Notes: generated from the letters alone by a model not told the origin. Shown: positions 4,773-6,433, counted from the stretch's first letter. The stretch: DNA of 32,000 bases from Promethearchaeota archaeon (GCA_048938295.1 JBHLMI010000022.1:14643-46642); one strand, 5' to 3'. Made by a program: numbers and translations.

Positions 4773-4967
4773 GGAGCACCTCTTTCAATGAGTCTTACTC
4801 GGTAGCATCAAATTTAGTTGATATAAATCTACACCACAAGAATGAAATTTCCAGATTATGGGAAAATTGGGTTTCTCAGGCGTTCTATCCCGTGGGACGA
4901 AAGACTCTTTATTACAACCTGCACATGTGTCTAGAAAAGGAGTAAGCGGCTCAGGGGAAGACAGACC

Positions 4968-5867
4968 GTGATTAAAGGCTTCGCCGTCTTTCGCATGGAC
5001 CCAAAAATCGGACCCCAATATGTCTATCAAAGCGACACGATTGAGACGATAACTCATCAAGAGGTCCTTGCGATTTTTGCTACCCACAACTTGTTCCGTG
5101 AGGGTTTTCGTGGTGTCCATGTGAGTAACCGGACCTGGGCTACCTATGTGTTTCCACCCTGGATAATTGCGCTGTTTTTAGGTCCCGATGAACCCATTGG
5201 GCCACTCCGGGAACCCATGAAAAAAATCCTCAACGCGAGTAAGCTCTCAGAGGAGCCCAAGCCAGAAGAGTGGAAAAACCTCTACCACGAGCTCCTTGTT
5301 GAAATCCAGAGCTCTCCAGTTGCAGATTTGTTGACGTCAAAAAAGACCACGGATTTCCTCAAGGAGATGATTGAATTGGATATCCTGTATTTTGATCCCC
5401 ACTTCAACTTTGAAATCGGAACCACCTATCCTGCAGCTGACCATCTGACCGGTCTAAACAGCTATGATACACGATTGTTCTTAGAGAAGCTCACCTTAGC
5501 AGGCATTTTTACCAGTGAGCCCGTGATTGGTGTCACGCATTGTCCCATCTGTTTGGGGTTCAAGGTGGTAAGTCGCTTGGCTTGCCCGCAATGCAGCGTT
5601 ACAGCTCTTGATGTTGTCCGCTACCCAACCTCCAGGGAAGGAAGGTCACAAAAAGCGAATACCTCTGGCAAACCAATGGAACTTTTCTATTCGTGCCTGA
5701 CCTGCCAACACACTACTAGTGAACCTGTAGTAACGCTATTATGCACAGAGTGTGGGTCTCAGTTCCAACCAGATGAAGCAGCTTATCGAAATATGGATCG
5801 ACTAGTATTGAATCAACCCATCGCTGAGGGACTCATTAAGAAAGTTGAAGATGAGTCATCTGATTAG
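4968..5867 (+). CDS. Longin/uDENN-like N-terminal domain fused to a TackOD1-like winged-helix/Zn-ribbon domain
   Basis: N-terminus FAVFRMDPKIGPQYVYQ with a beta-beta-alpha-beta-beta-beta-alpha hydrophobicity pattern. C-terminal half has GTTYP...LEKL...GIF followed by four CxxC pairs (CPIC, CPQC, CLTC, CTEC). Assigned by eye. Confidence 0.55.
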   Translation: MIKGFAVFRMDPKIGPQYVYQSDTIETITHQEVLAIFATHNLFREGFRGVHVSNRTWATYVFPPWIIALFLGPDEPIGPLREPMKKILNASKLSEEPKPEEWKNLYHELLVEIQSSPVADLLTSKKTTDFLKEMIELDILYFDPHFNFEIGTTYPAADHLTGLNSYDTRLFLEKLTLAGIFTSEPVIGVTHCPICLGFKVVSRLACPQCSVTALDVVRYPTSREGRSQKANTSGKPMELFYSCLTCQHTTSEPVVTLLCTECGSQFQPDEAAYRNMDRLVLNQPIAEGLIKKVEDESSD

Positions 5868-5881
5868 CTATTCTTACTAAC

Positions 5882-6433
5882 CTAAATTTTATCCCAGGGT
5901 TTTCCAGCTTTCTCATATGAAGAATAAATTTTCTTTGCGAGGGATTCAAAAACATTGTTCACATGAAGGTCATCTTTTGCGCTTGTTTCAATGAAGTCCA
6001 TCTTCAATTGCTTTGCGGCCGTTTTAGCTGCCGATTCTTCTACGACACGTTGGTCTTTCAAATCAGTTTTGCAACCGACTAGGAGGAGTGGAATACCCTC
6101 ACACCGTTGATAGACCTGCTGCATCCAGTGATCAACCCGATCAAAAGATTGCTGATCAGTAACATCATAGGCGATGATTGCTCCTGCAGCGCCTTCAAAG
6201 TATAAACCACGAATGAAATCAAAGCGTTCTTGTCCGCCTGTATCGTAGATGACGAGTTTGATATTCGTGTCATCTTTGAGTTTGATCTGCTTGGTGAAAA
6301 AGTCGACGCCTAAGGTGAAGAGATAACTTTCATCAAATTGACCGGTGGTGTAACGGCGGGCAAGTGAGGTTTTACCGACCCCTGCGTCGCCGACAACTAT
6401 GACTTTGTAGACAACTTCAGCTAGTTCTTCCAT
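5882..6433 (-). CDS. Rab-like small GTPase (Ras superfamily)
   Basis: G1 GDAGVGKT, G2 TLGVDF, G3 DTGGQE, G4 CKTD, G5 ETSAK. RabF-like motifs LGVDF, KLVIY, YFEGA and IAYDVT. Confidence 0.95.
   Translation of the reverse strand: MEELAEVVYKVIVVGDAGVGKTSLARRYTTGQFDESYLFTLGVDFFTKQIKLKDDTNIKLVIYDTGGQERFDFIRGLYFEGAAGAIIAYDVTDQQSFDRVDHWMQQVYQRCEGIPLLLVGCKTDLKDQRVVEESAAKTAAKQLKMDFIETSAKDDLHVNNVFESLAKKIYSSYEKAGKPWDKI

Follow-up and report, generated by a model that had tools for sequence, protein, structure and literature searches.

Longin and roadblock platforms dock on GTPases in all characterised cases (Tran et al. 2024). The longins of GTPase-activating proteins (GAPs) are marked by a GP motif in the loop between strands 1 and 2. 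This motif is common to FLCN, NPRL2, SMCR8 and C9orf72, is not found in adaptins, TRAPP subunits or DENND proteins, and has been seen in one class of longins from Asgards; the 2025 study of GAP longins asks with which GTPases these are paired (PMC12290439). Liu et al. (bioRxiv 10.1101/2020.10.19.343400) report that Asgard genomes are rich in NPRL2-like longins, with fusions to two-component-related domains (their Fig. 5c), and that most of these fusion genes lie outside conserved neighbourhoods. The pairing of regulators with GTPases is an open problem in Asgards, which carry dozens of eukaryote-like small GTPases together with longin and roadblock proteins. Such pairs are hard to predict because the small-GTPase and longin/roadblock genes of MK-D1 are generally not in operons (Tran et al. 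2024). The TackOD1 domain was defined by five CxxC motifs and one HxxC motif, with a function called obscure, and was described in the architectures TackOD1, REC-TackOD1 and REC-wHTH-TackOD1, REC being the receiver domain and wHTH a winged helix-turn-helix (Galperin et al. 2018, PMC5847659). Here we describe a gene for a longin-TackOD1 protein (P0001), tail-to-tail with a gene for a Rab-like small GTPase (P0002), in a 32,000-nucleotide stretch of DNA (the window) from a Promethearchaeota archaeon (GCA_048938295.1, JBHLMI010000022.1:14643-46642).

P0001 is encoded at 4968..5867 on the plus strand (299 amino acids, GTG start, stop codon included) and P0002 at 5882..6433 on the minus strand (183 amino acids). 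The list of open reading frames (ORFs) confirms both frames, as well as the 14-nucleotide spacer between the convergent stop codons (5868..5881). We found 42 full-length relatives of P0001 with 44-100% identity and lengths of about 285-305 amino acids, all annotated as hypothetical proteins and all from metagenome bins of Asgards (Promethearchaeota) that carry various NCBI labels. An alignment of 26 orthologs (A1) has a mean column identity of 59%. The GTG start is taken to be correct because most orthologs in A1 have ATG at the same position.

P0001 resembles NPRL2, FLCN, SMCR8 and C9orf72 in its longin topology and in the GP motif of the strand 1-strand 2 loop, and like these GAP longins it has a winged-helix-type module behind the longin domain and a small-GTPase gene adjacent. 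It is unlike them in that identity is only 11-13%, Pfam gives no NPR2 or Folliculin match, no conserved arginine finger was found, the gene block holds no heterodimer partner, and the neighbouring GTPase is Rab-like rather than Rag- or Arf-like. Its C-terminal module is TackOD1, which the eukaryotic proteins lack. The fusions of Liu et al. come from the same phylum and share the longin class and the joining to a prokaryotic signalling output domain, but the text of that preprint names no TackOD1 and reports no pairing with a Rab-like GTPase. In the Thaumarchaeota REC-TackOD1 regulators (PMC5847659), TackOD1 likewise stands at the C-terminus behind an N-terminal domain that reads a switch; there, however, the input is a phospho-receiver instead of a longin, and TackOD1 has five CxxC plus HxxC instead of four CxxC. 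Longin and TackOD1 domains, and fusions of this type, have already been described, and that picture is unchanged. What is new here is that, throughout the lineage, a fusion with a reduced TackOD1 is paired with a single Rab-like GTPase, and that the genes of this longin class in the genome all adjoin a GTPase gene.

A predicted NPRL2-like longin domain with a GP motif

AlphaFold2 (AF2) models and structural searches assign residues 1-117 of P0001 (4968..5318, plus strand) to a longin domain of the NPRL2/GP-motif type. We used a whole-protein model with a predicted local distance difference test score (pLDDT) of 81 and a domain-alone model made from 41 diverse relatives (pLDDT 91.5, predicted template modelling score 0.85). 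In both models, DSSP gives the topology strand-strand-helix-strand-strand-strand-helix-helix without an N-terminal helix, with strands at residues 2-11, 15-21, 46-52, 55-62 and 65-71 and helices at 30-39, 78-90 and 99-115. In a VIA search of representatives of the whole PDB, the best match to the whole-protein model is a Lokiarchaeal longin (8yqg_B, Z 10.8 over 119 residues, root-mean-square deviation 3.0), followed by the 362-residue GATOR1 chain 8fw5_B (Z 10.4). Small and medium chains of AP-3, AP-2 and AP-5, Lst4, a FLCN-complex chain, VAMP7 and synbindin come next, and longins fill all of the first 17 rows. With the domain-alone model, GATOR1 chains of 362-370 residues take the first five places with Z 10.4-9.6 (for 9v0j_A, Z 10.4 over 122 residues), and 122-124 of 125 residues are aligned against chain residues 6-165. 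Adaptor chains of AP-3/AP-2 (Z 9.5-9.3), Lst4 (Z 9.2) and FLCN-complex chains (Z 9.0) follow. The GATOR1 chains are probably NPRL2, judging from their length (the output carries no chain names). The modelled N-terminal domain thus has a longin fold, with NPRL2 as its nearest match.

An earlier note on this DNA, made from the sequence alone, had read the N-terminal string FAVFRMDPKIGPQYVYQ (residues 5-21) as the opening of a longin/uDENN domain. The longin fold is borne out by the structural matches above. The uDENN part stands only insofar as uDENN is itself a longin, and the DENN reading is rejected: there is no DENN core, residues 121-299 form a winged helix and zinc ribbons with no DENN match in Pfam, and the structural matches to DENND1 and DENND10 (Z 7.7-8.0) lie below NPRL2. 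A roadblock/MglB reading of the N-terminus is rejected because of its topology and lower scores (Z 7-7.9). The MglB-MglA and other roadblock systems do resemble P0001 in having a small alpha/beta platform of the same superfamily encoded beside a Ras-like GTPase gene, but roadblock has an N-terminal helix, whereas the P0001 domain opens with a strand and closes with two helices.

Foldseek, which the earlier note had proposed as a check, also returned longins, although its E-values against the PDB are weak (best 2.6e-3, none below 1e-3 for either the whole-protein or the domain-alone model); hardly anything but longin and roadblock proteins was retrieved with either model, and the top 50 rows for the domain-alone model belong to these two groups without exception. 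Searches at the sequence level gave little. Pfam, with E-values up to 10, detects no family in residues 1-115, and NCBIfam is uninformative on the whole protein. Among all PDB sequences, a profile of 12 relatives matches only designed helical bundles, which we regard as noise, and Pfam finds no NPR2 or Folliculin match in ten distant relatives. A feature search of the ESM Atlas (scores 0.81-0.82), which serves as a lead only, retrieved hypothetical proteins of Promethearchaeota; in one of the clusters, 19% of the members carry NPR2 (PF06218).

The GP motif is Gly15-Pro16 (codons at 5010..5015, plus strand), at the end of the loop between strands 1 and 2, in agreement with the location given in PMC12290439. 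Both residues are invariant in the 26 orthologs, and Gly15 is also invariant in an alignment of 41 distant relatives (A5). The wider Asgard longin family has the consensus W-D-x3-G-P (alignments A3 and A5), with the same spacing as W33-D34 and G38-P39 of C9orf72, all of which are essential (PMC12290439). In the P0001 orthogroup, the tryptophan position is occupied by Met, Phe or Leu.

A reduced TackOD1 module

Residues 121-299 comprise the TackOD1 half. The TackOD1 profile (PF18551, gathering cut-off 32 bits) scores 46.1 bits against the whole of P0001 and 48.2 bits against residues 116-299, and the top five rows of a fold search of the atlas are TackOD1 families, consistent with this assignment; in the fifth row, TackOD1 stands behind a REC domain. 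The match falls into two pieces, at profile positions 35-98 and 143-184, and positions 99-142 are unmatched. A winged-helix part (residues 121-190; 5328..5537, plus strand, as are the other parts) is followed by a first zinc ribbon (5541..5594) with CxxC pairs at residues 192-195 and 206-209, which lies within the first piece of the match. The second zinc ribbon (5694..5753), with CxxC pairs at residues 243-246 and 259-262, corresponds to the second piece. All eight cysteines of the four CxxC pairs are invariant in A1. Residues 121-299 match winged helices of the MarR/ArsR/SmtB type with Z 7.2-7.9 in VIA, which is middling by the tool's own scale. Conservation along P0001 is highest in the third helix of the winged helix (residues 165-177), and residues 165-175 are all invariant in A1. 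The earlier note had seen a TackOD1-like half with a winged helix and four CxxC pairs, and these results agree with it.

Between the two ribbons lies a variable, low-complexity linker (residues 221-236; 5628..5675) in place of the canonical HxxC and CxxC. In the AF2 model, pLDDT falls below 50 at residues 223-235, and both the length and the sequence of the linker vary among orthologs. In 26 of 26 aligned relatives, a disordered linker stands in place of the third metal site (HxxC plus CxxC). This site belongs to the unmatched profile positions 99-142, whose place in P0001 is taken by residues about 214-236. In a pairwise alignment with a paralog (P0100) encoded in the same genome, the HFTC and CPQC motifs of the latter fall opposite residues about 216-236 of P0001. 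With four CxxC pairs only, P0001 falls short of the eleven-cysteine definition of TackOD1 (five CxxC plus HxxC). Because HFTC and CPQC of P0100 fall opposite the variable, low-pLDDT linker, the TackOD1 of P0001 is a reduced variant; the loss of one metal site is shared by the whole orthogroup and goes back to its ancestor. The replacement of one ribbon by a low-complexity linker, as the earlier note had supposed, is thus upheld by the unmatched profile positions, the paralog alignment and the low pLDDT.

The winged-helix stretch is acidic (net charge -5, isoelectric point 4.6), and the zinc part is near neutral. The acidic winged helix speaks mildly against DNA binding by this copy of TackOD1.

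Two further TackOD1 proteins are encoded in the same genome. One has TackOD1 followed by an AsnC-type helix-turn-helix (HTH) domain and its gene adjoins that of a HEAT-repeat protein (L015:3773-4996). The other (451 amino acids; L016:3491-4846) has a different, roadblock- or longin-looking N-terminus, then TackOD1 and a long proline-rich tail.

The Rab-like GTPase and the linkage of longin genes to GTPase genes

P0002 is a Ras-family G domain (PF00071, 181.6 bits), and the 60 solved structures most closely related to it are without exception Rabs, with Rab23, Rab11 and Ypt1/Rab1 at the top (E about 1e-40), in accord with the Rab-like GTPase that had been recognised from the sequence. Alignment A4 shows the P-loop GDAGVGKT, the switch II motif DTGGQE with the catalytic glutamine, and ETSAK. 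The protein ends in GKPWDKI and lacks a cysteine there, so that the prenylation motif of eukaryotic Rabs is missing; the absence of a C-terminal cysteine is usual for archaeal Rab-like proteins. The G4 motif (6062-6073, minus strand) is CKTD instead of the usual NKxD, and CKxD or TKxD is kept across the orthogroup.

We then investigated the loci of the longin genes. The family to which the P0001 genome belongs includes 18 further genomes in two genera, all with an ortholog of P0001. The convergent GTPase gene is kept at every ortholog locus of the family that has enough flanking sequence, namely at L001-L005 and at 14 of 17 loci among L018-L036, the remaining three being cut by contig ends. 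Synteny, which had been named as a check, thus upholds the pairing within this family, and the linkage persists down to 44-50% ortholog identity (17/17 orthologs with sufficient flanks). The annotated longin-TackOD1 and GTPase genes at L001, L003 and L005 are 8-50 nucleotides apart. The conserved unit is a four-gene block (phosphodiesterase, longin-TackOD1, GTPase and a pyridoxal phosphate-dependent enzyme of the PALP family), and the genes further out differ.

Within the 2.52-Mb genome itself, the longin profile picks up four genes, distributed over three loci that each abut a small-GTPase gene. As a background, 2.6% of the non-GTPase genes adjoin a GTPase gene (33 GTPase ORFs in the genome; a crude gene list), and the probability of three of three loci adjoining a GTPase gene is about 2e-5 if the loci are independent. 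At one of the other loci (L014:3086-4569, on contig C50), a 177-amino-acid Ras-family GTPase gene is followed after 32 nucleotides, on the same strand, by the gene for the 305-amino-acid P0100. This paralog has the same longin and a full TackOD1 (five CxxC plus HxxC) and is 24% identical to P0001 (E 1e-27); the GTPase is 33% identical to P0002. At the other locus (L047:2843-6448, G000:C38:87843-91448, minus strand), a 314-amino-acid longin protein, a 323-amino-acid longin-GTPase fusion and a 580-amino-acid longin protein are encoded in a run. The fusion consists of a sigma-adaptin-like longin (PF01217, E 1e-4) and an Arf/Roc/Rag-like GTPase, and the 314- and 580-amino-acid proteins carry the same longin type as P0001. 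This layout recalls GATOR1 or FLCN-FNIP, with two longin subunits and a Rag-type GTPase.

Similar arrangements are found elsewhere. The gene for P0091, a longin-TackOD1 protein with 24% identity to P0001 (about 14% in the longin), lies 6 nucleotides upstream of a Ras-family GTPase gene, and its neighbourhood is unrelated to that of P0001. Its operon (L012:1-6636) adjoins genes for a hybrid histidine kinase, a receiver protein and a PAS/GAF kinase, surroundings that fit a link between the longin-TackOD1/GTPase module and two-component signalling. In two other Asgard families, genes for longin proteins of 360-400 amino acids, NPRL2-like in length, lie immediately upstream of or overlap genes for Arf/Rag-like GTPases in 5 of 5 loci (L048-L052). 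These GTPases have 283-312 amino acids with an N-terminal extension of about 125-135 residues. Weak matches to winged helices of the ArsR/TrmB type were obtained for the longin proteins of L049 and, in a third family, L055. There are also longin genes set apart from GTPases: the stand-alone longins of the largest family have no GTPase neighbour (0/8), and relatives P0045, P0049 and P0071 have other neighbours. The longin domain family is linked to small GTPases much more often than by chance, though not always as a direct neighbour.

Possible functions of the longin-TackOD1 protein

From the folds, motifs, metal-site loss and gene linkage observed here, we infer a binding, a direction of control and an output. 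P0001 would be a signalling protein of two modules. Its longin domain would dock, probably as a dimeric platform, on the switch face of the convergently encoded Rab-like GTPase. TackOD1 would be the output module, and its binding to a partner of its own would depend on the contact between longin and GTPase. The longin would thereby replace the REC domain of the REC-TackOD1 regulators, with a GTPase switch in place of a phosphorylation switch. We consider it moderately probable that P0001 docks on its neighbour and that TackOD1 is an output gated by the contact, with a contact of the GAP type favoured because of the GP motif and the first rank of NPRL2 among the structural matches. A role in GTP hydrolysis is suggested as more likely than one in nucleotide exchange. 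Because the partner is Rab-like and no arginine is conserved family-wide, nucleotide exchange and pure effector roles could nevertheless be envisaged.

Several observations weigh against this proposal. No arginine is conserved across the wider longin family, and the loop between strands 4 and 5, where our own topological reasoning would place an NPRL2-type finger, has no conserved arginine. The genes for P0001 and P0002 are convergent and do not form an operon. The counts within the family are not independent because the whole four-gene block is syntenic among related genomes, and the linkage could be inherited gene order. The orthologs of P0100 retain the GTPase gene at only 3 of 7 loci. Finally, none of 17 longin-TackOD1 genes in another large family has a GTPase gene within 1.5-3.5 kb, so that the conserved linkage expected in the earlier note holds in the family of P0001, as a four-gene block, and fails in this one. 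A complex prediction from alignments, for two copies of residues 1-120 with the GTPase, reached a score of 0.01, the mark being 0.32, and we count it neither for nor against binding.

The docking reading has to be weighed against three others. P0001 might be a true GAP of the NPRL2/FLCN/SMCR8 kind, with Arg48 or Arg54 perhaps as the arginine finger and with TackOD1 serving only for localisation or dimerisation. The best-matching GATOR1 chains of NPRL2 length and the invariant GP motif, reported as specific to GAP longins (PMC12290439), are what such a protein should show, Arg48 is invariant in the 26 orthologs, and P0002 retains the catalytic glutamine expected of a GAP-stimulated enzyme. However, Arg48 is invariant only within the P0001 orthogroup, and the lack of a conserved arginine extends to relatives encoded in operons with GTPases. 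Moreover, known GAP longins are heterodimers acting on Rag/Arf GTPases, not on Rabs (PMC12290439), and the four-gene block encodes no partner longin. This alternative thus seems rather doubtful. A nucleotide-exchange platform for the Rab-like GTPase, comparable to the longin cores of TRAPP, Mon1-Ccz1 and Fuzzy-Inturned, would suit a partner whose nearest solved relatives include Rab23 and Ypt1/Rab1, which are activated by longin-based guanine nucleotide exchange factors, and such factors are also among the fold matches of P0001. In longins that are not GAPs, for instance those of the TRAPP and DENND families, the GP motif is reported to be missing (PMC12290439), though, and the TRAPP and Mon1-Ccz1 chains score Z of only about 7-8, below NPRL2, which makes an exchange platform improbable.

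It is also conceivable that P0001 is a one-component transcription factor, whose longin senses a ligand or protein, whose winged helix and ribbons bind DNA, and for which the GTPase is a mere syntenic neighbour. TackOD1 includes a MarR-like winged helix and occurs with REC and AsnC-type HTH domains, and the many longin-TackOD1 genes with no GTPase nearby, including the 17 mentioned above, would be accounted for. Against this stand the charge of the winged-helix segment, unusual for a DNA-binding surface, the loss of one TackOD1 metal site, and the GTPase gene next to all three longin-class loci of the genome, so far above the background. We regard a transcription factor as unlikely.

Returning to docking of P0001 on P0002, its most specific form would make P0001 the cognate GAP-type regulator of the GTPase encoded opposite to it, with the nucleotide state relayed through the longin to TackOD1. 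This seems rather unlikely as it stands. If true, it would provide the first matched pair, and control of GTPases by GP-motif longins would predate eukaryotes. GP-motif longins would then act on Rab-like besides Rag/Arf-like GTPases and would be wired to prokaryotic signalling outputs. In any case, the P0001/P0002 locus, the P0100/GTPase pair and the run at L047 offer small, soluble candidate pairs that can be directly expressed and assayed. We therefore see P0001/P0002 as a useful experimental handle rather than as a new kind of system.

Flanking genes and other occurrences

At the left end of the block is the gene of the type I phosphodiesterase/nucleotide pyrophosphatase family (PF01663; 3480..4772, minus strand), divergent from the P0001 gene. 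At the right end, the gene for the PALP enzyme (PF00291; 6646..7971, plus strand) is divergent from the GTPase gene. The phosphodiesterase and PALP neighbours are likewise present at the orthologous loci L001, L003 and L005. A reverse ORF at 4785..5120 (111 amino acids) was rejected as spurious, as it overlaps the conserved start of the P0001 gene.

Members of the longin family are encoded in 306 of 400 genomes across the phylum, and a single genome can have as many as 10 of them. Their forms comprise stand-alone proteins of 125-145 amino acids, winged-helix proteins of 360-400, TackOD1 proteins of 300-330, and longer ones. At L007/L008, the longin-TackOD1 gene for P0049 overlaps tail-to-tail with a gene for a KaiC-like ATPase (PF06745). 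No RNA run is listed as containing the stretch; the runs that do contain it are from sediment, soil and mangrove DNA.

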